A stretch of 32,000 bases of DNA. It comes from Candidatus Hermodarchaeota archaeon. GTDB lineage: Archaea > Asgardarchaeota > Heimdallarchaeia > Hodarchaeales > Hodarchaeaceae. A model generated the notes under the pieces. That model was given only the letters and a program-made list of their open reading frames with translations, did not search any database and was not told where the DNA came from. Of the stretch, positions 474 through 22,273 are shown piece by piece. Where the stretch lies: NCBI GenBank assembly GCA_048886185.1, contig JBHLKY010000011.1:1-32000 (forward strand), written 5' to 3'. Numbering within the stretch: the first letter of the stretch is position 1; each line of letters begins with the position of its first letter. A program made the translations under genes and the position numbers.

Positions 474-1949
474 TTATGTTTTACCAGGAATGCCTGTTGT
501 TTTTTCTGGGATAATCTGTTGTTTATATTTATAGAACATTTCCGCTAGTTCTTGTACCTGTTGTAGTATTTCTTCTGAATTTAATTTCGTAAACTGATAA
601 TCATTTATTAACAATTGACCATTTGATATTACATACTGAATTTCGTTCCCATTTGCTGCCCAAATCAAGTTCTCTACTACATTATCTAAACGTGTCGGTA
701 TTAAATTTGGTTTTGAAAGATCGACGACAATAACATCTGCTAATTTTCCTGGTTCTAACGATCCTGTATTAAATCCTAAAATTTGTGCCGGAAGAATTGT
801 TATCCGCTCGATGACATCTTGAGCAGTCATTAATGTTGCATTTTGGTGGTAGGCTTTCTGGTATTGAGCAGCCACTCGAGCTGCATTAAGAATGTTCTGA
901 TTATCAGCACTTCCTGACCCATCTGTAGAAATTGCAAATATAATCCCTTTCTCCTTAAATTTTTGAAGAGGTGGCATCCCTGAACCAAGAATCGTGTTTG
1001 CAAGGGGATTATGAACAACCTTGGTTTGGGTTTTTGCTAAGATTGTGAGATCATTTTCAGTATTATGAACTTGGTGCCCAACAAATGTTTTTTCATCGAG
1101 AAAGTCAATGGAATGGCCATATTCAACTGGAGTCATTCCATACTCTTCCGTAAACCACTTCGTTGTCGCAGGTTCTTCGCTAGAGTGAATATGAATTAAA
1201 GTATCGTGAGAACGAGCCCAAGTTTTTAAAGCTTTAAGAAGGTCTGGACCATTAGAAAAGAACTGATCTGGACCAGGGATAATTTTAATATTCGCAGTAT
1301 TTTTATATTTCTCATACAATTCGTCCAAACGATTAACCGCTATATCAGTATTATCCAGTATTTTGGGATCATAATGCCGATCTTGAGAACCAATAGCGAT
1401 CATGATTTTAGTTCCAGCGATTTGGTTGGCTTTAACGAGTTCGTCTACATGATACTTGTTGAAATTGCAGTGATGAACTAATGCTGTTGTTATTCCATAC
1501 TGTAAGTCATCTACTCGTGCTTTCAGGTAAGTGATGAAGTATGGTGACTTTCCAAAATGTTTTGTTAATCGATCTTCTTCAGTATGTAAAAATCCTGTAT
1601 AAAGATTCACCACTGAATCTAACCAAGTAGTTAGGGGAACATCTTTGGCAATTCCAATGATTGGAGATTCATGATCATGTCCATGTGCTTTGACAAACCC
1701 TGGAAGTGTCACTCCATTTATCTGGGGTATTTTATCGGGTTCACTCACCCCTGTTGTTGGTGATCCAATGATTTCTAATTGTGTACCATAAGCATCCAAA
1801 ATTTGCTGGATTTTCTGACTATCAAATTGGCCAACCTCTTTGATGTATTTTCCTTCAATGAAGACATATCCATCATTAATACGAGTTTCCCGCCCTGATG
1901 TGTCCGAAAGAGGCAAGAGGAATCTTGTTCTGATCAACTTGTACTTCAT
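474..1949 (-). CDS. Metal-dependent amidohydrolase (Atz/Trz/MtaD-like deaminase family), substrate unknown
   Basis: PGFVKAHGHDHE (HxH), HIHSSE, HNPLAN, STDG and GSLEPGKLADVIVVD motifs. Confidence 0.85.
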   Translation of the reverse strand: MKYKLIRTRFLLPLSDTSGRETRINDGYVFIEGKYIKEVGQFDSQKIQQILDAYGTQLEIIGSPTTGVSEPDKIPQINGVTLPGFVKAHGHDHESPIIGIAKDVPLTTWLDSVVNLYTGFLHTEEDRLTKHFGKSPYFITYLKARVDDLQYGITTALVHHCNFNKYHVDELVKANQIAGTKIMIAIGSQDRHYDPKILDNTDIAVNRLDELYEKYKNTANIKIIPGPDQFFSNGPDLLKALKTWARSHDTLIHIHSSEEPATTKWFTEEYGMTPVEYGHSIDFLDEKTFVGHQVHNTENDLTILAKTQTKVVHNPLANTILGSGMPPLQKFKEKGIIFAISTDGSGSADNQNILNAARVAAQYQKAYHQNATLMTAQDVIERITILPAQILGFNTGSLEPGKLADVIVVDLSKPNLIPTRLDNVVENLIWAANGNEIQYVISNGQLLINDYQFTKLNSEEILQQVQELAEMFYKYKQQIIPEKTTGIPGKT

Positions 1950-2115: not shown

Positions 2116-3483
2116 TTGGATCTCATTATTAAGAATGGAACCCTTGTAGACACCAATGGTCACTATAAAGCAAACTTAGCTATCGCTGAAGGGAAAATCA
2201 AAGCTATCTTTCTGGGAAACAAAAATTTTCATGCAGAAAAAGTTATCGACGCTAGTAAAAAGATGGTTTTTCCAGGGATAGTTGATACTCATGTCCATTT
2301 TCAACTCCAAGATTTGGGTCAGACCATTTCAACTGATTCTTTTGCTTCTGGAACTCAAGCTGCTGCTTGTGGAGGTGTGACCACGATCATTGACTTTGCG
2401 GATCAGATTAGAGGGGAATCTCCTCTCAAAAGCTTTTATGAGCGGAAGAAGAATACTGATCCACAAGTAGCCATTGATTATAGCCTACACATCTCAAAAA
2501 CAGACATTGATTTTCTAGACGAGATACCTACCCTCATATCTGAAGGGGTAACCAGTTTCAAATTTTTTACGACTTATAGTTGGCGAAATCTGGATCTTAA
2601 TGATGTAGAACTGTTAAAATTCTTTAGTGAGGTTAGGAAAAATCGGGGAATGGTTATCGGCCACTGTGAAAATGATAGTATAGTTGTCAACTACCGAAAT
2701 ACGCTTATTCAGGAGGGAAAAACTGATCCGATTTTTCATGCTCTTTCACGACCTCATATAGCAGAGGAAGAAGCCATCCAGAGAGCAATTCTCTATGCGA
2801 AAAAAACAGGTGTTAAGCTTCATTTGGCTCACATCTCAACGAAAGAAGGCTGTGATTTGTTATCACATGCGAAAAAGCAAGGTTTAAACATAACAGGAGA
2901 GACTTGCCCGCATTATTTGCTGCTGAACGAGAAAGCCTACAAGGGATCAGAGGGTTACTTGAATCTGATGTCACCACCTCTTCGTCATGCTAAGGATCAA
3001 CAAGCATTGTTTCACCAAGTACATTCAACAGTGGATCAAATAGTAACAGATCACTGTGTATTTTCCCGTGAGAGTAAGGGGAATGGGGAATTACCTTTTC
3101 ATCAAGTCTTAAATGGAATTCCTGGGATTGAAACCTCTTTACCTCTTATGCATAATTTTCTAATTAATAAACACAAATTAACCTATCCTCAGCTAGTGTC
3201 TCTAATGTCCACCCGACCGGCACAAATATTTGGCCTTTATCCTCAAAAAGGAAGTCTAATGGTTGGAACAGATGCTGATATTGTAGTTTTTGACCCACAA
3301 ATAGAAAAAACTATTGAACCAGAACTTCTTCATCATTCTATTGACTGGAATCCTTTTACGGGGATGAGAGTTGTCGGATGGCCAGTCTTGAGTGTCTTGC
3401 GTGGACATATCCTTCAAGAGAATGGGAGCTTTATTGGTCCCCAAAACGAGGGAAAATTTCTGAAATGTTCAACACATCATTAA
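2116..3483 (+). CDS. hydA: Dihydropyrimidinase / D-hydantoinase (HydA/HyuA family)
   Basis: DTHVHF, SFKFF (carbamylated Lys), HCEN, HLAHIS, ETCPHYL, MSPPLR, TDHC and GIPGIE motifs. TTG start preceded by AGGTGA. Confidence 0.9.
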   Translation: MDLIIKNGTLVDTNGHYKANLAIAEGKIKAIFLGNKNFHAEKVIDASKKMVFPGIVDTHVHFQLQDLGQTISTDSFASGTQAAACGGVTTIIDFADQIRGESPLKSFYERKKNTDPQVAIDYSLHISKTDIDFLDEIPTLISEGVTSFKFFTTYSWRNLDLNDVELLKFFSEVRKNRGMVIGHCENDSIVVNYRNTLIQEGKTDPIFHALSRPHIAEEEAIQRAILYAKKTGVKLHLAHISTKEGCDLLSHAKKQGLNITGETCPHYLLLNEKAYKGSEGYLNLMSPPLRHAKDQQALFHQVHSTVDQIVTDHCVFSRESKGNGELPFHQVLNGIPGIETSLPLMHNFLINKHKLTYPQLVSLMSTRPAQIFGLYPQKGSLMVGTDADIVVFDPQIEKTIEPELLHHSIDWNPFTGMRVVGWPVLSVLRGHILQENGSFIGPQNEGKFLKCSTHH

Positions 3484-3518: not shown

Positions 3519-4367
3519 TCAAAGATAAACAGGTGAGACGATAAGCTCTGGTTTATGCCATTCATAATGAACTGTTGTAGGATGTTTTGTTTGAATCTGA
3601 TAATCAGATAGGGTAGGATTAAATTCTTCAATCTTTTGAATGACATAGTTAATACTATGATTTCCTAAGTTGTTTAGTGCCACATCAACTGTGATCCAAC
3701 TCATTTTAGGAGAAAGAATCTCTCCCCATGCATGGGCTTCAACCCTTGTGCCATTATCTCTAATATAGTAACCAGTTAATCGTTTACATGGAATCCCACG
3801 CATTCGGGCCAATGTTATGAAAAGATCTGTAAATTCATCACAATCACCAATTTCACCCATAAAAGCTTGAAAGGCTCCTAATCTTTCATCTTGATTTTCA
3901 GGATGTTTAATCTTCGTTCTTACATATCGAAATGCTGTTTGTACCCATTGAGAGAGATCATCAGTCTTAAACCATGCAGATTTGGTAATTTCTTGTATTG
4001 TGGGTGACTTTGTAGGCCAATAAATGGAGTTTTCTTGATATTTTGTCCTCAGAGCTTCAGGAATGTCTGATATTTTTCCCCAATCATCTTCTATGTTAAC
4101 AAAAAATGTCTTAGGATATATGGTGACAATTCTCTCTAAGGAAATTACCCCTTTAGTATGTACTTTCTGTTGAAATAAAAAAAAGGCATTTTCTCCTTTT
4201 GTTTTTACCTTACAAAGTTGAGGATATTTGTCAATATGTACAATTTGATGATAATTAGGATAGTGAAAGAACTTTAAACGAATTGATGGCGACCCAGCTT
4301 TTGCACGATATTGCAGCTGCTCCTGATGATGTATTTTCCACCCTTGGATTTGATGGGAAATGACTAT
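3519..4367 (-). CDS. Transglutaminase-like cysteine protease domain protein (~282 aa), probable non-canonical ATA start
   Basis: Catalytic triad GDCDEF / HAW / TVD. Manual translation shows the frame open for 169 codons upstream of the track's ATG at 3860, up to TGA at 4376-4374. GAGGTG lies 7 nt before the in-frame ATA at 4367. Confidence 0.8.
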   Translation of the reverse strand: MVISHQIQGWKIHHQEQLQYRAKAGSPSIRLKFFHYPNYHQIVHIDKYPQLCKVKTKGENAFFLFQQKVHTKGVISLERIVTIYPKTFFVNIEDDWGKISDIPEALRTKYQENSIYWPTKSPTIQEITKSAWFKTDDLSQWVQTAFRYVRTKIKHPENQDERLGAFQAFMGEIGDCDEFTDLFITLARMRGIPCKRLTGYYIRDNGTRVEAHAWGEILSPKMSWITVDVALNNLGNHSINYVIQKIEEFNPTLSDYQIQTKHPTTVHYEWHKPELIVSPVYL

Positions 4368-5970: not shown

Positions 5971-6381
5971 TTATTTGGGATTTTTCTGATATTTCCTTAA
6001 CAATTCTTTACATTCTTCATTGTCTTGATATTCTAGGATGACTCCATGAGATTTCAAGAAATCTTCGGCGCCCATTATCGTTTCATTATCTGCAATGACT
6101 ACTCTAGGAATTTGGAAATAAACAATGGTTCCAGAGCACATCTGACAAGGTGAGAGAGTTGTATACAAGACTGATCTTTGATAATCTTCAGGAAGCAGTA
6201 TCCCTGCGTTCTCTATGGCATCCATTTCCGCGTGCAAGATCACACTTGCTTTTTGTTGGCGCTGATTTCTCCCTCGACCGATTATTTTTCCATCAAGAAC
6301 TAATACTGATCCAATTGGGATCCCATTTTCTTCAAAACCATGTTTAGCTTCTTGAACTGCAACTTGCATAAACTCATCCAT
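5971..6381 (-). CDS. Zinc-dependent nucleobase deaminase, fungal Fcy1-type cytosine deaminase-like
   Basis: GIPIGSVLV, HAEMDAIENAG, LYTTLSPCQMC (HxE...PCxxC) motifs. Confidence 0.85.
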   Translation of the reverse strand: MDEFMQVAVQEAKHGFEENGIPIGSVLVLDGKIIGRGRNQRQQKASVILHAEMDAIENAGILLPEDYQRSVLYTTLSPCQMCSGTIVYFQIPRVVIADNETIMGAEDFLKSHGVILEYQDNEECKELLRKYQKNPK

Positions 6382-6410
6382 TTAGTGTTCACCAAAAAAG
6401 ATACTGGGTT

Positions 6411-7463
6411 TTAGTAAATCCCACCCATGGTTAACGCCATTATAGCTTTTTGCACATGAAGTCGATTCTCAGCCACATCGTAGATACAGGATCGCGGGCC
6501 TGAGGCGACTTCATCAGTCACTTCGTGTCCCCGATCAATGGGCATCGGATGAGTGAAGATTGCATTATCAGTTAACGCCATTTTTTGAGAATCACAGATC
6601 CAAGTGGGATAGTTGAGCGCTTTATCGATTTCCTGTTGTTTTAGAAAGTCCCCATCTAGATAAGCTTCAGGACTCATCCAATGGCGAGAATAGACGACAT
6701 GGGCTCCCTCATACCCTTTGGTGAGATGGTTTGTAACTTCAAAATGAGTATTATATTCATTGCAATTCTCTTCAGTCCGCTTTAAAACCTGAGAATCCAA
6801 ATCATATCCTTCAGGAGAAGCAACGGTGACATCCATACCATAACGTGAGCCAATCAACATGGCTTCTTGAACAGAGCACCATGAACGAGCCAACGCGCCA
6901 TGACCCCAAGTAACCAATAATTTTTTCCCTTTTAAGACTCGCCAATCAGGGGGAAAGCCAATCCCTTTGTTAAACCATTCCGACCAACCCATGACATCTG
7001 CCAAACCCTGACAAGGGTGGTATTTATCATGAGCCATTGAAATGATGGGTATAGTGGACCATTTCGCGTATTCTCGAAGGAGGGCCTCACCCTCGCCATA
7101 TTCACCTACTTTATCTTCAAGTATTCGAATACCAAGACCGTGAGCATACCGAGACATTACTTGTGCAGCATCTTCAACGGTCTCTCCTGCAGTAGTTGCG
7201 GTCTTTAAGCGCATAGCTTTAGGTTCGAGAAATTGGGCATGGCCACCCAATTCTGTAGCAGCTACTTCAAAACTTTGTCTGGTACGAACACTTGGATTAT
7301 AAAAAAACATAAAGAATGTTTTATGTTGTAACAAATTTATATAGCGACGGGAAAACCGTTCCCGCTTCATTCTACCTGCTAGATCTAAAACTAAGTCTAA
7401 TTCGTACTTCTCCCAATCTTGTGTGCAAATCAGATCTCGTCCATATAAATCAGAAAATTCCAT
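6411..7463 (-). CDS. Carbamoyltransferase (ATC/OTC superfamily, YgeW/AOTC-like), paralogue 1, substrate unknown
   Basis: FYNPSVRT, HPCQ, HPMP, AENRLH motifs; no OTC DxxxSMG loop. Confidence 0.85.
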   Translation of the reverse strand: MEFSDLYGRDLICTQDWEKYELDLVLDLAGRMKRERFSRRYINLLQHKTFFMFFYNPSVRTRQSFEVAATELGGHAQFLEPKAMRLKTATTAGETVEDAAQVMSRYAHGLGIRILEDKVGEYGEGEALLREYAKWSTIPIISMAHDKYHPCQGLADVMGWSEWFNKGIGFPPDWRVLKGKKLLVTWGHGALARSWCSVQEAMLIGSRYGMDVTVASPEGYDLDSQVLKRTEENCNEYNTHFEVTNHLTKGYEGAHVVYSRHWMSPEAYLDGDFLKQQEIDKALNYPTWICDSQKMALTDNAIFTHPMPIDRGHEVTDEVASGPRSCIYDVAENRLHVQKAIMALTMGGIY

Positions 7464-7476
7464 ATTTATTCACCTT

Positions 7477-8463
7477 TTATGGTATAATTGTTGTTCCTGC
7501 TTCTCCATCGAGGGCAGCTGCGGCAAGCTCAGGTGTGGTAATCACAACTTTCTTACCTCCAGCTTTTAAAAATCTAATAGCAGCTTTTAATTTAGGCCCC
7601 ATTGAGCCTTTTAACTTTTCTCCGAAAGCTCCTTCTTCTAAGTACTTTTCAACTTCTGATATAGTCATTCTATCAATTCCCTTTTGATCAGGAGTTTTGT
7701 AATGTAGATAAACTTTATCAGTATCAGTTAAAATCGCAAAAGCTTCTGCATTAGTATTACTAGCCAGCCTTTCCCCAGCTAAGTCCTTATCTATGACTGC
7801 TTCGATTCCTGTTATTGAACCATCAGGATTCTTAATAACAGGAATCCCTCCACCTCCACTTGCAACCAGTATAAATCCTGTTTCCAATAAAACATTCACT
7901 TGATCTTTTTCGTAAATTTCTATCGGATCTGGGGAAGGAACTACACGACGGTACCCCCGCCCTGCATCTTCAATTATTGTAAACTCTGGATGATCTACTT
8001 TAATTTTATCAGCTTCCTCTTTGGTATAAAAGGGTCCAACAGGTTTGGTGGGATTTTGGAATGCAGGATCATCCCTAGAGACAACAACCTGAGTCACGAT
8101 CGTCGCAACTTTAATTTTTTTCTCAGGATCTAACCGACTTGGAGGTCCTTCTGTTACCAAGAGATTTCCGAGAATATTTTGAATAAGATACCCTATCTGT
8201 CCTTGTGTCATTGCTCCTGCAACATCCATTGTAAGCAGGGGACGATCATAGGGAGGATGGGAGCCAGCTTCCATTTGTAGCATAAGATTTCCGACTTGAG
8301 GCCCATTACCATGAGTTATTACAATTCGCCATTTCGGAATGACCTTCATGATTTGTTTTGCGGTTTCTGTGACATTTTCGATTTGTTCCTCTAGTGTTCC
8401 TCGTTGTTTCCCTTTGATCATGGCATTTCCCCCAAGTGCAATGACAACTAATGGTTTAAGCAT
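7477..8463 (-). CDS. arcC: Carbamate kinase
   Basis: ALGGNA, HGNGPQVG, PTKPVGPFY, GRGYRRVVPSP, GGGGIPV, VIDKD, GSMGPK motifs. Confidence 0.95.
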   Translation of the reverse strand: MLKPLVVIALGGNAMIKGKQRGTLEEQIENVTETAKQIMKVIPKWRIVITHGNGPQVGNLMLQMEAGSHPPYDRPLLTMDVAGAMTQGQIGYLIQNILGNLLVTEGPPSRLDPEKKIKVATIVTQVVVSRDDPAFQNPTKPVGPFYTKEEADKIKVDHPEFTIIEDAGRGYRRVVPSPDPIEIYEKDQVNVLLETGFILVASGGGGIPVIKNPDGSITGIEAVIDKDLAGERLASNTNAEAFAILTDTDKVYLHYKTPDQKGIDRMTISEVEKYLEEGAFGEKLKGSMGPKLKAAIRFLKAGGKKVVITTPELAAAALDGEAGTTIIP

Positions 8464-11224: not shown

Positions 11225-12289
11225 TTAATGCATAATACATGCCATAATACCCTTTTGTGCATGCAATCTGTTCTCGGCTTGATCGAAGATGATAGATTGA
11301 GGTCCATCAGCAACTTCATCATCAACTTCCATTCCACGGTCTTGGGGGAGACAGTGCATGTAGTACCCCCGTCCCTTCTTCGTCATATCCATTAATTCCA
11401 CTGTTGTTTTCCAATGTTTATATTTATTCATGATATCAGGCATCATTTCAGGTTTAGCAGGTCGAACACCCTCTATACCATGGGCTTCCAGAACTCCCCA
11501 GCTCTTGGGATACACGAAATCAGCATCCTGAAATGCGGCTTTCATATCACGTTCAAGAGTAAAAGTCGAACCATATTGATCACAATGATCTTCTACTTTC
11601 TTGATAATATCTGGATGGAGGTCGAATTCAGGAGGACACGCTAATGTCAGATCCATCCCAAACATAGAGGGAGCAAGGACTCCTGTTTGAGGAACTGCCA
11701 TGGGTTTTTGACCTGCAGAATATGCCCAGCTCATCACAAATTTCTTTCCTTGTAATTTGTTAAAATCATGACTACATTTCTCGTATATGGTTAAAATATC
11801 CGCCATTCCTTGGCAGGGATGATACACATCAGACTCCATATTGATGATTGGCTTCTTACTCCAATATGCAAAGTTTTCCTGGATTTTTTGGCCTTTCCCA
11901 TACATCCAGTTACACTTACTGCCGTAGATACGTATAGCAATTGCATCTCCCATTCTAGATAAAACTCGTGAAACATCAGATACCCTTTCTGTTTCATAAG
12001 CGATCTCATCTCCTGGTAATGCTGGAGTATAGATAGCTCCAGGTTGGAGAAAATGTGCATGCCCACCTAATTGTGTCATTCCTGCTTCAAATGAGTTTCG
12101 GGTTCGAAGTGAATCATTATAAAAGATCATAAAGAGAGTTCGGCCAGAGAGGATGTGTCTATGATCCTCATGAATAACAAAACGTTTTTTCAAATCAGCA
12201 CCAACAAGTAGCATGGTTTCAATTTCTTCTCGGGTAAAATCGATCATAGTGAGGAAATCTCGGCCTTTCAAGTCTTCAGTAATTACCAT
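11225..12289 (-). CDS. Carbamoyltransferase, YgeW-like, paralogue 2
   Basis: FYNDSLRT, HPCQ, KKFVMSWAYS...KPMAVPQ, FGMDLTLACP, DADFVYPKSW, HCLP. The substrate domain resembles E. coli YgeW as remembered. Start placed at ATG 12289 (track start 12349). Confidence 0.85.
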   Translation of the reverse strand: MVITEDLKGRDFLTMIDFTREEIETMLLVGADLKKRFVIHEDHRHILSGRTLFMIFYNDSLRTRNSFEAGMTQLGGHAHFLQPGAIYTPALPGDEIAYETERVSDVSRVLSRMGDAIAIRIYGSKCNWMYGKGQKIQENFAYWSKKPIINMESDVYHPCQGMADILTIYEKCSHDFNKLQGKKFVMSWAYSAGQKPMAVPQTGVLAPSMFGMDLTLACPPEFDLHPDIIKKVEDHCDQYGSTFTLERDMKAAFQDADFVYPKSWGVLEAHGIEGVRPAKPEMMPDIMNKYKHWKTTVELMDMTKKGRGYYMHCLPQDRGMEVDDEVADGPQSIIFDQAENRLHAQKGIMACIMH

Positions 12290-12556
12290 GATAATCATTC
12301 CTTTCATTAAAATGCGATAAAACTCTGAAGGAGGATTTTTTCTATTCAAAAAATGTCTAGGGGGTAGAGTTAACTCCCAGGAATATAGTTCAAATTTCTT
12401 TGTGAAAACTCGTGTCTTGTCTTAATAACCCAGAAAACGGATAATCACATAAAAGACTCTGTTATGAAAGTATCTGAATAATCTATAAATTCCGACTAAT
12501 TGACATTAAAATCCTTATAAAAATAGTTTCGTTTGAATAAGTCCAATGATGGTCTT

Positions 12557-19622: not shown

Positions 19623-20879
19623 TCACTTATTATTAAATATGAATTGAAGTTCAGAGATTCGAGGTAAAACTGGAGGCGGTAATGAGATCTCCTGCTGTAA
19701 AACTTTAGGATCTTTAAATCCAACTCCTGTAATTGGTATAATAACTCGATCAGACTTATCAATTTCACCTCTTTCCACTAAAATTTCAAGACCAGCAACT
19801 CCTGCAGTTCCTGAGGGTTCTCCAAATATCCCCTCATGTTGGGCTAACCATTTTTGAGTTCTGAGGATAGCTTCCTCCGATACAGTAACCGCGGTGCCAG
19901 AACTGTCGTAAATAGCAGTAAGTGCGGAGTCAGCATCCCAAGGATGAGGATCAGCGAGTCCCGCTGCTACAGTGTGTGGAGTGTGTTCCCAATCACGAAA
20001 CTCTAATGCTGGTGTTCTTTTTAAAACTCCATCGACAATCGGTGCACATTCTTCAGGTTGAACTGCAACATGATGTGGAATAGAAGTAATAAAATCCAGT
20101 TCCTCGAATTCTTTGAATCCTTTATAGGTTCCCGCTAATAATCCACCACTACCAGTTGCAAGAAGTACCCAGTCAGGTGGTTCCCAACTACATTGTTCAC
20201 AAAGCTCGAACGCAAGGCTTTTTGTCCCCTCAAACTGAAAAGGATTGAAAGGGCCAAATGATGGAGAGGGCATCCAGCCAAATCGCTCATAAGACTTTCG
20301 GAAGAGTGTAACTGATGAATCTTGCCCCTCTAATTCCTCCTTTACCCTAATAACTATAGCTCCCAAATATGCTAGTTGCGATAATTTCCCCTCGGATGTG
20401 TGTTCTGGTACAAAGACAACTACTTTTTTTCCTGCTCTCGCGCCATATGTTGCTAGTGCTGCAGCAGCATTCCCTGAGGAAGCAGCTGTAAAGACTTCAG
20501 CTTTCAGTTCTACTCCTTTTGATACCCCTATAGAAATTGGTCTATCTTTAAAACTTCCTGAAGGATTACCAGTTTCAATTTTGAAGAATAAATTCTTCAT
20601 TCCAAATTTTTCTTCTCCTATACGACTAGAAGGGATAAGAGGAGTTCCACCACATCCAAGATTAACTATATATTTATTATTCCTTATCGGAAAAAACTCA
20701 CGATATCGCCAATGAGTGAATGGTCTTTTTCCCAATACTTTTTTAGTAATTTTTTCTTTCAATTTGTCATATTTGAAGTTTATGCGTAAGCGGAACCCAC
20801 AACTACAACTTTGTGTCAAAAAAAGTTTTTCTTCCACCGATTTGCCACATTTTGGGCATTTTAGATATGGATCGTACAC
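19623..20879 (-). CDS. Threonine-synthase-like fold-type II PLP enzyme, probably non-canonical substrate
   Basis: N-terminal CxxC..CxC, GGTPLI, NPSGSFKDR (PLP Lys), SSGNAA, TGSGG, EPSG, ITGVGFKD motifs. Confidence 0.85.
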   Translation of the reverse strand: MYDPYLKCPKCGKSVEEKLFLTQSCSCGFRLRINFKYDKLKEKITKKVLGKRPFTHWRYREFFPIRNNKYIVNLGCGGTPLIPSSRIGEEKFGMKNLFFKIETGNPSGSFKDRPISIGVSKGVELKAEVFTAASSGNAAAALATYGARAGKKVVVFVPEHTSEGKLSQLAYLGAIVIRVKEELEGQDSSVTLFRKSYERFGWMPSPSFGPFNPFQFEGTKSLAFELCEQCSWEPPDWVLLATGSGGLLAGTYKGFKEFEELDFITSIPHHVAVQPEECAPIVDGVLKRTPALEFRDWEHTPHTVAAGLADPHPWDADSALTAIYDSSGTAVTVSEEAILRTQKWLAQHEGIFGEPSGTAGVAGLEILVERGEIDKSDRVIIPITGVGFKDPKVLQQEISLPPPVLPRISELQFIFNNK

Positions 20880-20917: not shown

Positions 20918-22273
20918 TTATATTTGTCTTGCGATTCTGGGAGTAAGATCTAATCGTTCCCAAAGAGAAACCGCAGAGTCCGTTGACTGTTGGCTAACAA
21001 TAATCGCATCAAGAGATTTATGCACGCCATTTTTTACTATAGTTTTCCCATTTACTATAACATATTTGATATCTCGCCGAGAAAATGATCCATACACAAG
21101 GTGACTGTAAACATTATCCTCATGAATGGGTGTTGGTAAAAATGAGGTATCCATAATAGTGAAATCAGCAGCTTTATTCTTTTCAATTGATCCAATATGA
21201 TCCTTCAAGCCAATAGCTTGTGCGGCATTTATTGTTATCATTTGTACCACTTGAAGTGGAGTTGGTAATTGGCTAGGATTACGATGGTTCAGCTTGTGCA
21301 TGAGATAAGCAGTCCTCATATTCTCGATCGCATCATAAATAAATCCATCATTACCAACACCAATGTTTATCCCCTTTTGCAACATTTCTGGAAGTTGAGC
21401 TACTCCAACTGCGTTTAATTCATTACTTTTTGGATTATGAGCTATATTAGTTCGGGTTTGGGCTATTAGGTCGATCTCATGCTCGTTAATGTGAACAGCG
21501 TGGGCTAATGCGGTTCGTGATCCAAGGAAGCCCTCATCATAAAGTCGTTCTACTGTTCGCTTTCCATATTTCTCAAGATTATGATGAAGATCAGCTAATC
21601 CTTCTGCTGTATGAACAGTCTTAAATGAATTAGTTTCAGTGGCAAATTCTACCGTTTTGTTAATTAATTCATCTGAAACCGTAAAGGAGGCATGTAAACA
21701 GTAGATCCCATGCACCAATGTTTTCTCTGGGTCATTCTGCGAAATGAATCTTCGATTTTCCTCTAATCCTCTTATTCCTTCTTCATAGCTTCGACGCTCT
21801 GTCACTTCAAAGCATATCGCTCCTCTAATCCCCACATCTTGTGTAGCTTTCGAAATACGATCTAGTGAACCCTCAATAGAATTTGGGCCTGAATATGTAT
21901 CTAAATAAGCAGTGATACCATTTAATGCTAATTCATTCACAGCGAACAACGCAGATGTATATGCATCCTCTAAAGTGAGAGCTTCGTCCATTGTCCACCA
22001 AATTCTTTGTAAATTCTGAGTAAAATCTGTTGGTGGATCTATATGGAGAGGTGCACCTCTTAATAATGCAGAATAGAGATGAGTATGAGCACAAATAAAG
22101 CCAGGAAACACAACGAGGTTAGAACAATCGATTACAGTATCAGCTTTGTTGGGTATATTTTTACCAACCTGAATGATCTTACCGTCCTCCACTAAAATAT
22201 TTCCTTGCGAAATAACTTCATTGTTTGCATTCATGGTCACAATTAAGCCATTCTTAAGTAATAAACTTTCCAT
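20918..22273 (-). CDS. ssnA: SsnA-like amidohydrolase
   Basis: PGFICAHTHLYSALLRG, PTDF..NL..IWW..D.AL, IEGSL, CFEVTER, EEN.RF, HASFTV, HTAEG, HNPKSN, GNDG match the SsnA pattern as remembered. Confidence 0.75.
   Translation of the reverse strand: MESLLLKNGLIVTMNANNEVISQGNILVEDGKIIQVGKNIPNKADTVIDCSNLVVFPGFICAHTHLYSALLRGAPLHIDPPTDFTQNLQRIWWTMDEALTLEDAYTSALFAVNELALNGITAYLDTYSGPNSIEGSLDRISKATQDVGIRGAICFEVTERRSYEEGIRGLEENRRFISQNDPEKTLVHGIYCLHASFTVSDELINKTVEFATETNSFKTVHTAEGLADLHHNLEKYGKRTVERLYDEGFLGSRTALAHAVHINEHEIDLIAQTRTNIAHNPKSNELNAVGVAQLPEMLQKGINIGVGNDGFIYDAIENMRTAYLMHKLNHRNPSQLPTPLQVVQMITINAAQAIGLKDHIGSIEKNKAADFTIMDTSFLPTPIHEDNVYSHLVYGSFSRRDIKYVIVNGKTIVKNGVHKSLDAIIVSQQSTDSAVSLWERLDLTPRIARQI

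Follow-up and report, generated by a model that had tools for sequence, protein, structure and literature searches.

Positions 1 to 32,000 of contig JBHLKY010000011.1 (assembly GCA_048886185.1, Candidatus Hermodarchaeota archaeon, order Hodarchaeales), a 32,000 nucleotide (nt) stretch termed here the window, carry a carbamate kinase gene, arcC, followed on the same minus strand by genes for a carbamoyltransferase, termed CT1, and for a small deaminase. The spacers are 13 nt (7464-7476) and 29 nt (6382-6410). An earlier note, made from the sequence alone, had described this co-oriented group and had proposed that the transferase phosphorolyses a ureide other than citrulline, in an energy-conserving breakdown of pyrimidines. 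The open reading frames (ORFs) and their gaps are confirmed, and the name carbamoyltransferase 1 used there is apt, as a second, paralogous carbamoyltransferase gene, CT2, is present in the window (Table 1). With a probability of roughly 0.6, CT1 acts in the reductive uric-acid route of purine degradation (2,8-dioxopurine, SsnA-type) as a catabolic ureide:phosphate carbamoyltransferase, and not in arginine or pyrimidine metabolism.

Table 1. Genes of the window that bear on CT1 and its proposed pathway (aa, amino acids; PLP, pyridoxal phosphate)
Gene or product	Positions	Strand	Family evidence and proposed role
Carbamate kinase (arcC), 328 aa	7477-8463	(-)	TIGR00746, 373 bits against an equivalog cut-off of 358.25
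CT1, carbamoyltransferase, 350 aa	6411-7463	(-)	OTCace_N and OTCace domains; candidate phosphorylase of a ureide derived from 2,3-diureidopropanoate
FCY1-like deaminase of the cytidine deaminase (CDA) fold, 136 aa	5971-6381	(-)	PF00383; last gene of the operon
CT2, carbamoyltransferase paralogous to CT1	11225-12349	(-)	OTCace domains; candidate 2,3-diureidopropanoate carbamoyltransferase (YgeW-equivalent step)
ThrC-like fold-type-II PLP enzyme	19623-20879	(-)	PALP domain; candidate replacement of YgeX (diaminopropionate ammonia-lyase)
SsnA-like amidohydrolase	20918-22273	(-)	NF005540 and TIGR03314 are the top models; candidate ring opener for a reduced purine
HyuA/dihydropyrimidinase-family cyclic amidohydrolase	2116-3483	(+)	TIGR02033, 410 bits against a cut-off of 393; candidate hydantoin-ring opener yielding 2,3-diureidopropanoate
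ATZ/TRZ/SsnA-superfamily amidohydrolase	474-1949	(-)	PF01979, 148 bits; possibly deaminates a nucleobase or hydrolyses a ring

CT1 belongs to the transcarbamylase superfamily, with matches to PF02729 (125 bits) and PF00185 (111 bits). The carbamoyl-phosphate motifs SVRT(R) and HPCQ are present. The position of the HxLP motif reads HPMP, and this Leu-to-Met change is constant across the CT1 clade. The translation contains FTHPMPIDRG, VTWGHGALARSWCSV and VVYSRHWMS, and the strings HPMP, WGHGALARSWCS and YSRHW, which the earlier note had set apart from those of YgeW, are all found in it. A multiple alignment gives MTWAYSPSYGKPLSVPQ, VYPKSW and HCLP at the same three positions of E. coli YgeW, and the differences are real. 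Motifs constant in the CT1 family are SMAhDkyHPCQ (isMAhDkyHPCQ), tWghgal-aRSWcSVQE, VVYsR.WM and HPMP.

Scores of CT1 with the curated models of known carbamoyltransferases all fall below cut-off. They are 226 bits with the N-acetylornithine carbamoyltransferase (AOTC) model NF003384 (cut-off 288), 193.5 bits with the ornithine carbamoyltransferase (OTC) model TIGR00658 (cut-off 280.85), 182 bits with the putrescine carbamoyltransferase (PTC) model TIGR04384 (cut-off 500) and 97.5 bits with the YgeW model TIGR03316 (cut-off 500). Signature residues were taken from a transcarbamylase review (PMC4581275), which defines Glu92, Asn185 and Lys302 as discriminators of AOTC and N-succinylornithine carbamoyltransferase (SOTC), and DxxxSMG and HCLP as OTC motifs. 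When CT1 is aligned to AOTC, the three discriminators are replaced by Val, Ser and Glu, and the acceptor-binding Glu144 and Lys252 by Ala and Arg. Compared with AOTC, CT1 has a shortened 80's loop, and Trp77 sits in an insertion found only in AOTC. The 240's region of CT1 reads VVYSRHWMSPEAY, without DxxxSMG, and HPMP replaces HCLP. The motifs of CT1 differ from those of YgeW and the YgeW-specific insertions are missing. With respect to PTC, no agmatine deiminase (PF04371) was found in the genome of the archaeon, which is 96% complete. A canonical OTC is encoded on another contig (C8 protein; TIGR00658, 424.6 bits against 280.85), and the genome also has a PyrB-like aspartate carbamoyltransferase. 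Thus, because CT1 lies under all cut-offs and lacks the signature residues, and because a canonical OTC is present elsewhere, the comparisons support the conclusion that CT1 has none of the known specificities, i.e. citrulline, acetylcitrulline or carbamoylputrescine. Phosphorolysis by CT1 of some ureide that is not citrulline, as proposed earlier, is therefore well supported, and CT1 very likely works catabolically, as a ureide phosphorylase linked to the neighbouring carbamate kinase.

Relatives of CT1 carry OTC or AOTC as database names, and the nearest solved structures are of these two types. CT1 is as close to P. furiosus OTC as to Xanthomonas AOTC (approximately 181 bits and 34% identity with each), and an AlphaFold2 model made with 40 relatives (pLDDT 93.6) shows Xanthomonas AOTCase as its top structural match in Foldseek, with a TM score of 0.85-0.90. 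The CT1-AOTC alignment is gapless over the extended 120's loop and the proline-rich-loop region, whereas the alignment with P. furiosus OTC has gaps of 9 and 6 residues. The CT1 loop is as long as the proline-rich loop of the knotted enzymes, yet its GHGALARS segment has no proline. An ordinary OTC or AOTC serving arginine synthesis or citrulline fermentation would fit the names and the structural likeness, but it is extremely improbable in view of the missed cut-offs and motifs, the canonical OTC elsewhere in the genome, and the location of the CT1 gene beside carbamate kinase and outside any arg cluster. In addition, no arginine deiminase was found in the window, as had been noted earlier, or in the genome as a whole, where the top score with the arcA model is 92 bits (cut-off 489). 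Catabolic routes through arginine deiminase or agmatine deiminase were rejected, since the genome has no deiminase of either kind. The 92 bit match is a 335-aa open frame (G000:C10:111653-112549) that is distantly related to arginine deiminase and unlinked to carbamate kinase; its product is probably another amidinotransferase-fold enzyme.

The YgeW motifs are found in the other transferase of the window. In a family-level alignment, CT2 sequences show MSWAYSps.hKPrAVPQ, VYPKaW and HCLP, matching the acceptor-side motifs of YgeW, and SWAYS..KP.AVPQ, VYPKSW and HCLP are carried by both the window CT2 and E. coli YgeW. The YgeW model TIGR03316 gives 149-157 bits for CT2 and 98 bits for CT1, both under the cut-off, and with the AOTC model CT2 scores 270 bits (cut-off 288). 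By these sequence criteria the YgeW-like enzyme of the pair is CT2 and not CT1. CT2 would then take the YgeW step on 2,3-diureidopropanoate, and CT1 would act on the mono-ureide that is left.

The association of CT1 with CT2 and carbamate kinase extends well beyond the archaeon. Eighty genomic loci were examined, from Hodarchaeales/Heimdall metagenome-assembled genomes (MAGs), Chloroflexota, Acidobacteriota (Thermoanaerobaculales), Caldisericota, the Planctomycetota-Verrucomicrobiota-Chlamydiota (PVC) group and others, representing at least six phyla. Neighbourhoods were annotated by BLAST with proteins of the window, of E. coli and of a Thermoanaerobaculaceae contig (L083), and many of the loci stop at contig edges. 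CT1 has carbamate kinase as a neighbour in 54 of the 80 loci and an orthologue of CT2 in at least 46. In 23 loci CT1 or arcC is followed by a ThrC-like PLP gene. Less frequent neighbours are a GntR/UTRA regulator (11 loci), a YgeY-type M20 hydrolase (approximately 10) and a CysK-like 490-aa PLP protein (approximately 9). CT2, CT1, the kinase and the PLP enzyme form a conserved module, and CT1, which the earlier note treated alone, works as one of a conserved pair. On the Thermoanaerobaculaceae contig the module lies in a single cluster with SsnA (533 bits against 444) and YgeY (442 bits against 321), and the same cluster adds a HyuA-like hydantoinase and a fused PreT/PreA-like reductase.

Two further genes recur around the module. 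A Flavin_Reduct (PF01613) gene of approximately 190 aa is situated between CT2 and CT1 in many Chloroflexota loci (L015, L021-L023, L027, L028, L031, L033, L035-L037, L044, L070). The 490-aa CysK-like PLP protein is found beside M20 and CT2 genes in its approximately nine bacterial loci and falls under every family-model cut-off. The copy on the Thermoanaerobaculaceae contig (L083:6081-7556) and that of the archaeon (G000:C4:125564-127021; L090:8544-10013) share a 56% identity.

A pair of transferases so tightly co-distributed, with genes mostly adjacent, might also be a hetero-oligomer with active sites shared at the interface and with CT1 having no substrate of its own; residues of a neighbouring subunit do enter transcarbamylase active sites (PMC4581275). 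However, the carbamoyl-phosphate site of CT1 is complete (SVRTR, HPCQ and the Arg of AENRLH), PVC genomes have CT1 without CT2, and in the window CT2 and arcC-CT1 are 3.8 kb apart in separate transcription units. A hetero-oligomer of this type is thus quite improbable.

The reductive uric-acid pathway was first described in 2025, in gut bacteria only. Urate is reduced to 2,8-dioxopurine and beyond, and SsnA and HyuA open the rings to give 2,3-diureidopropanoate; YgeW phosphorolyses one ureido group and YqeA makes ATP, YgeY hydrolyses the other, and YgeX converts diaminopropionate to pyruvate (PMC12507026; bioRxiv 10.1101/2025.04.24.650524; PMC12990295). Formation of ATP from 2,3-diureidopropanoate has been demonstrated for YgeW with YqeA, and E. 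coli YgeW is so far the sole enzyme for which this phosphate-dependent cleavage has been reported (bioRxiv 10.1101/2025.04.24.650524; PMC12507026). The mono-ureide left after YgeW is albizziin in one of the 2025 papers and 3-amino-2-ureidopropanoate in the other, and which of the two ureido groups is cleaved first is still debated, even for YgeW (PMC12990295). Both 2025 papers (PMC12507026 and bioRxiv 10.1101/2025.04.24.650524) counted any PF00185 protein near SsnA as YgeW, and the pathway is said in a commentary to be restricted to anaerobic bacteria (PMC12990295).

Genes of this pathway accompany CT1 in bacteria. Among 42 CT1-bearing bacterial genomes, SsnA is over cut-off in 37 (with three more at 403-431 bits, cut-off 444), YgeY in 27 and the HyuA family in 24. 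YgeW is over cut-off in one and YgeX in none (0/42); a YgeX-like gene with 479-505 bits (cut-off 532) is found in four PVC genomes, in which the loci consist of CT1, kinase and PLP genes without CT2. All eight Caldisericota genomes show SsnA and a CT2-kinase-CT1-PLP cluster, and none of the eight has YgeW, YgeY or YgeX. Therefore CT1 and CT2 are the only decarbamoylating candidates found there. In an even sample of 201 Chloroflexota genomes, SsnA-type genes are present in 42 and CT1 in seven, and all seven are among the 42 (hypergeometric P of approximately 1e-5 by our own arithmetic, the genomes not being independent). CT2 is found in six of these seven. True YgeW is absent from all 201, and a comparison of YgeW and CT1 for complementarity is uninformative in this sample. 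In three of four CT1-bearing genomes checked (G006, G027, G036), SsnA lies beside ygfK, xdh subunits or a HyuA-like gene. The adjacent kinase and the co-occurring SsnA, HyuA and YgeY genes, all of which are in one cluster on the Thermoanaerobaculaceae contig, place CT1 with the lower module of the reductive uric-acid pathway.

A short transcarbamylase (336-342 aa) is encoded in two Chloroflexota genomes that have no CT1 (G090:C106:5167-6099; G102:C1:110145-111071). It scores approximately 240 bits with the YgeW model, has an SsnA-type gene no more than 8 kb away and may carry out the transferase step in yet another form.

The division of labour between the two transferases might be otherwise within the same pathway. 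CT1 could attack 2,3-diureidopropanoate and CT2 the mono-ureide, or one of the pair could remove the exocyclic ureido group of ureidomethyl-hydantoin or 5-ureido-dihydrouracil before ring opening. Some loci have CT1 beside a YgeY-type M20 hydrolase without a nearby CT2 (L021/L081, L032), mirroring YgeW and YgeY of E. coli, and the CT1-kinase-PLP loci of the four PVC genomes would also fit, as would the disputed order of the YgeW reactions. On the other hand, the YgeW-type acceptor loops are on CT2 and not on CT1, and genome G006 does have CT2, 25 kb from CT1 on one contig. One resolved PVC genome has CT1 without CT2, plus ygeW and ygeY as a canonical pair, and this combination suggests that CT1 supplements YgeW and does not take its place. 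Taken together, an exchange of steps of this kind is unlikely.

A protein search returned thousands of CT1 relatives, of which the best 120 (72-87% identity) are from Asgard archaea and Chloroflexota; the nearest carry the labels Hodarchaeales or Heimdallarchaeota. The CT1 clade is 60-89% identical over Hodarchaeales, Chloroflexota, Acidobacteriota, Caldisericota and PVC bacteria. A maximum-likelihood tree places CT1 in a single clade (SH-aLRT 100) on a long stem, apart from OTC, YgeW and CT2, and CT1, CT2 and YgeW group together (92% support) away from OTC. All eight archaeal CT1 sequences of the tree cluster together with 100% support, and their cluster is nested in bacterial, mostly Chloroflexota, sequences. 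CT1 is present in 16 of 21 genomes of the genus-level group of the archaeon, and in none of 59 genomes of other families searched in the same class. Because of this nested position and this distribution, the archaeal CT1 genes appear to have been acquired horizontally from bacteria.

The archaeal genome holds candidates for several other steps of the pathway. Carbamate kinase is the only one of the genome, i.e. the only match to E. coli YqeA and to a bacterial kinase. The SsnA-like gene of the window gives the top match in the genome both for SsnA of E. coli (30% identity, 186 bits) and for a true bacterial SsnA (35%, 245 bits), and is located 38 nt upstream of the ThrC-like gene. Similarly, the HyuA-like gene is the top match in the genome to E. 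coli HyuA (37% identity, 257 bits). It is kept near arcC-CT1 in eight Hodarchaeales loci, and its divergent pairing with the neighbouring ATZ/TRZ/SsnA-superfamily amidohydrolase is kept in L002, L004-L007, L010 and L047. That amidohydrolase shows chlorohydrolase/deaminase as top NCBIfam models (approximately 215 bits), all well under cut-off.

No match to YgeX is found in the genome, and the ThrC-like protein is for this reason a candidate for the enzyme that disposes of diaminopropionate. It scores 291 bits with the threonine synthase model NF006050 (cut-off 303) and lacks the phosphate-binding Arg, with NPFQFEGTKS in place of the NP(Y/H)R(I/L)EGQKT of Aquifex (NPYRIEG) and Thermus (NPHRLEG) ThrC. 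ThrC-like homologues of the bacterial module have M, T or L at this Arg position, and a second ThrC paralogue of the genome (G000:C5:88817-89938) retains the Arg. An identity as threonine synthase was rejected for the window gene because the Arg is missing.

A true YgeY (498 bits against 321) is encoded at G000:C5:54363-55559 (L089:8364-9560). Convergent with it is an adjoining gene for a class-III diaminobutyrate-type aminotransferase (L089:9575-10957; TIGR00709, 402.8 bits against 401.6), which may represent an alternative fate of diaminopropionate in a genome without YgeX. A three-subunit molybdoenzyme resembling XdhD/XdhA is found at G000:C7:80206-83830 (L091:9195-12829), with 39% identity to E. 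coli XdhD and scores below the family cut-offs. Near it are a second set of xanthine dehydrogenase genes and an allantoinase-family amidohydrolase (G000:C7:100852-102234; L092:10852-12234; TIGR03178, 364 bits against 358). The XdhD-like, second xanthine dehydrogenase and allantoinase-family genes are possible upstream purine steps.

The deaminase that ends the operon has yeast cytosine deaminase as nearest solved relative (108 bits). B. subtilis guanine deaminase gives 42 bits, and an identity as guanine deaminase was dropped on this comparison. Residues 4-131 align to positions 14-144 of the 158-aa yeast chain; the yeast C-terminal segment is not covered, and given this end of the alignment the substrate may be other than cytosine. 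Of 14 Hodarchaeales/Heimdall loci, just L004 and L006 have a homologue, and there is none in the bacterial loci. The deaminase is thus an accessory gene outside the conserved module.

This gene bears on the pyrimidine route of the earlier note. Written out in full, such a route would convert cytosine to uracil and dihydrouracil, the latter opened by the HyuA/dihydropyrimidinase-family enzyme, and CT1 would act as a beta-ureidopropionate phosphorylase yielding, with the kinase, ATP and beta-alanine. A cytosine-deaminase-like gene adjoining CT1 and a TIGR02033 dihydropyrimidinase-family gene 3 kb away are what such a route would call for, and a catabolic beta-alanine transcarbamylase has been hypothesised and never found (PMC4581275). 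But the deaminase accompanies CT1 in just two of the 14 related archaeal loci, TIGR02033 (IPR011778) is equally the family that defines HyuA in PMC12507026, and a search of the genome gave no dihydropyrimidine dehydrogenase of the PreA/PydA type. SsnA, YgeY, CT2 and the fold-type-II PLP partners have no role in pyrimidine reduction, and a second transferase would have no obvious use. Pyrimidine catabolism by way of beta-ureidopropionate is therefore improbable, and this part of the earlier proposal is not supported, as the CT1 orthologues travel with CT2, the PLP enzyme, SsnA, YgeY and HyuA. Of the two substrates offered, beta-ureidopropionate is disfavoured by the purine-type conserved partners, and albizziin fits the gene context, having been reported as an intermediate of the purine pathway.

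Under the reductive uric-acid reading, the purine would be reduced and the SsnA-like and HyuA-like amidohydrolases would open both rings to give 2,3-diureidopropanoate. The YgeW-like CT2 would phosphorolyse one ureido group, and CT1 the remaining one (of albizziin or 3-amino-2-ureidopropanoate), leaving 2,3-diaminopropionate. The adjacent carbamate kinase would convert each carbamoyl phosphate, with ADP, to ATP, and the ThrC-like PLP enzyme, or another, would dispose of diaminopropionate. The CT1 step would replace or parallel hydrolysis by YgeY, saving a second carbamoyl phosphate, and a yield of two ATP per purine would follow. More specifically, and tentatively, at odds somewhat short of even, CT1 may represent a new activity, a mono-ureido-diaminopropionate phosphorylase, which with CT2 would give two ATP per ring system against one in E. 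coli, in a widespread bacterial variant acquired by Hodarchaeales.

Several points weigh against the assignment of CT1 to the uric-acid route. The substrate proposed for CT1 is read from gene context, and the order CT2 then CT1 is suggested only because CT2 shares the loops of YgeW. YgeY is present in 27 of the 42 CT1 genomes and in the archaeon, and either a phosphorolytic second step is redundant there or CT1 does something else. The counts from these 42 genomes are indicative and not a formal test, the genomes being related, incomplete MAGs picked by CT1 similarity. The pathway in the archaeon is incomplete or scattered, with the XdhD-like and YgeY genes on other contigs, and a search of the genome for a YgfK- or UacX-type reductase found none, so that gaps are left in the upper pathway. 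The SsnA-like protein misses the equivalog cut-offs (NF005540, 379 bits against 444; TIGR03314, 357 bits against 455), and the ThrC-like protein shares only 33-35% identity with the bacterial module gene, which makes orthology uncertain. The cytosine-deaminase-like neighbour of CT1 hints at pyrimidines in this operon. Finally, placement of CT1 in a characterized clade, which the earlier note had held to speak against its proposal, is contradicted by the tree with respect to OTC, while the tree includes no AOTC, SOTC or PTC references and placement relative to these was judged by curated hidden Markov model cut-offs and signature residues.

If the assignment is correct, purine fermentation joins the predicted metabolism of the Hodarchaeales lineage as a bacterial acquisition. 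Hodarchaeales are an Asgard group often placed nearest to the eukaryotes. With two separate transferases, and often no YgeY, the variant also offers a natural test of which ureido group is cleaved first. The names OTC or AOTC, given to these proteins in hundreds of database entries, would be corrected. Neither of the 2025 papers separates the CT1 and CT2 clades or proposes two phosphorolytic steps, and nothing further on these was found in the literature searched. New here are the occurrence in Hodarchaeales with evidence for transfer, the statistics over whole genomes, and the motifs that mark CT2, and not CT1, as YgeW-like.

Other genes of the window, for an EAP30/Vps-like protein, for thermosome subunits, for ribosomal protein S17e and for RpoK, mark the DNA as that of an Asgard archaeon. 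A transglutaminase-core ORF at 3519-3860 (minus strand) is 113 aa long, against approximately 270-285 aa for the homologues that occupy this place in related loci of Hodarchaeales; the ORF may be truncated or frameshifted in this genome.

Among the closest known systems is YgeW/YqeA of E. coli, in which a catabolic transferase likewise stands beside carbamate kinase, and the SsnA, HyuA, YgeY and XdhD-type genes of that system are also found in CT1 genomes. The chemistry is presumed to be common, i.e. ureido phosphorolysis on a diaminopropionate skeleton with gain of ATP. However, YgeW is 396 aa long with inserted 240's-loop helices, whereas CT1 has 350 aa without these, and WGHGALARSW, YSRHW and HPMP of CT1 stand against WAYSPSYGKP, YPKSW and HCLP of YgeW. 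Unlike YgeW, CT1 is paired with CT2, and carriers of CT1 almost never have YgeW or YgeX.

Xanthomonas campestris AOTCase (PDB 3kzc, 3kzk) is the nearest solved structure, with 34% identity in a full-length alignment, and both enzymes have SxRT, HPCQ and the extended 120's loop. Its signature residues, Trp77, loop proline and HCLP all differ in CT1, and CT1 is not in an arginine biosynthesis cluster. The arginine deiminase pathway (ArcB and ArcC) follows the same energy logic, in which a ureide and phosphate give carbamoyl phosphate and then ATP, and it shares the operon of arcC with a transferase. The CT1 locus differs in having neither deiminase nor antiporter, and CT1 in lacking DxxxSMG and HCLP. 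The hypothetical beta-alanine transcarbamylase (PMC4581275) would likewise be coupled to a kinase and act on the product of a cyclic amidohydrolase, but nothing here ties CT1 to beta-alanine; its context is of the purine type instead.

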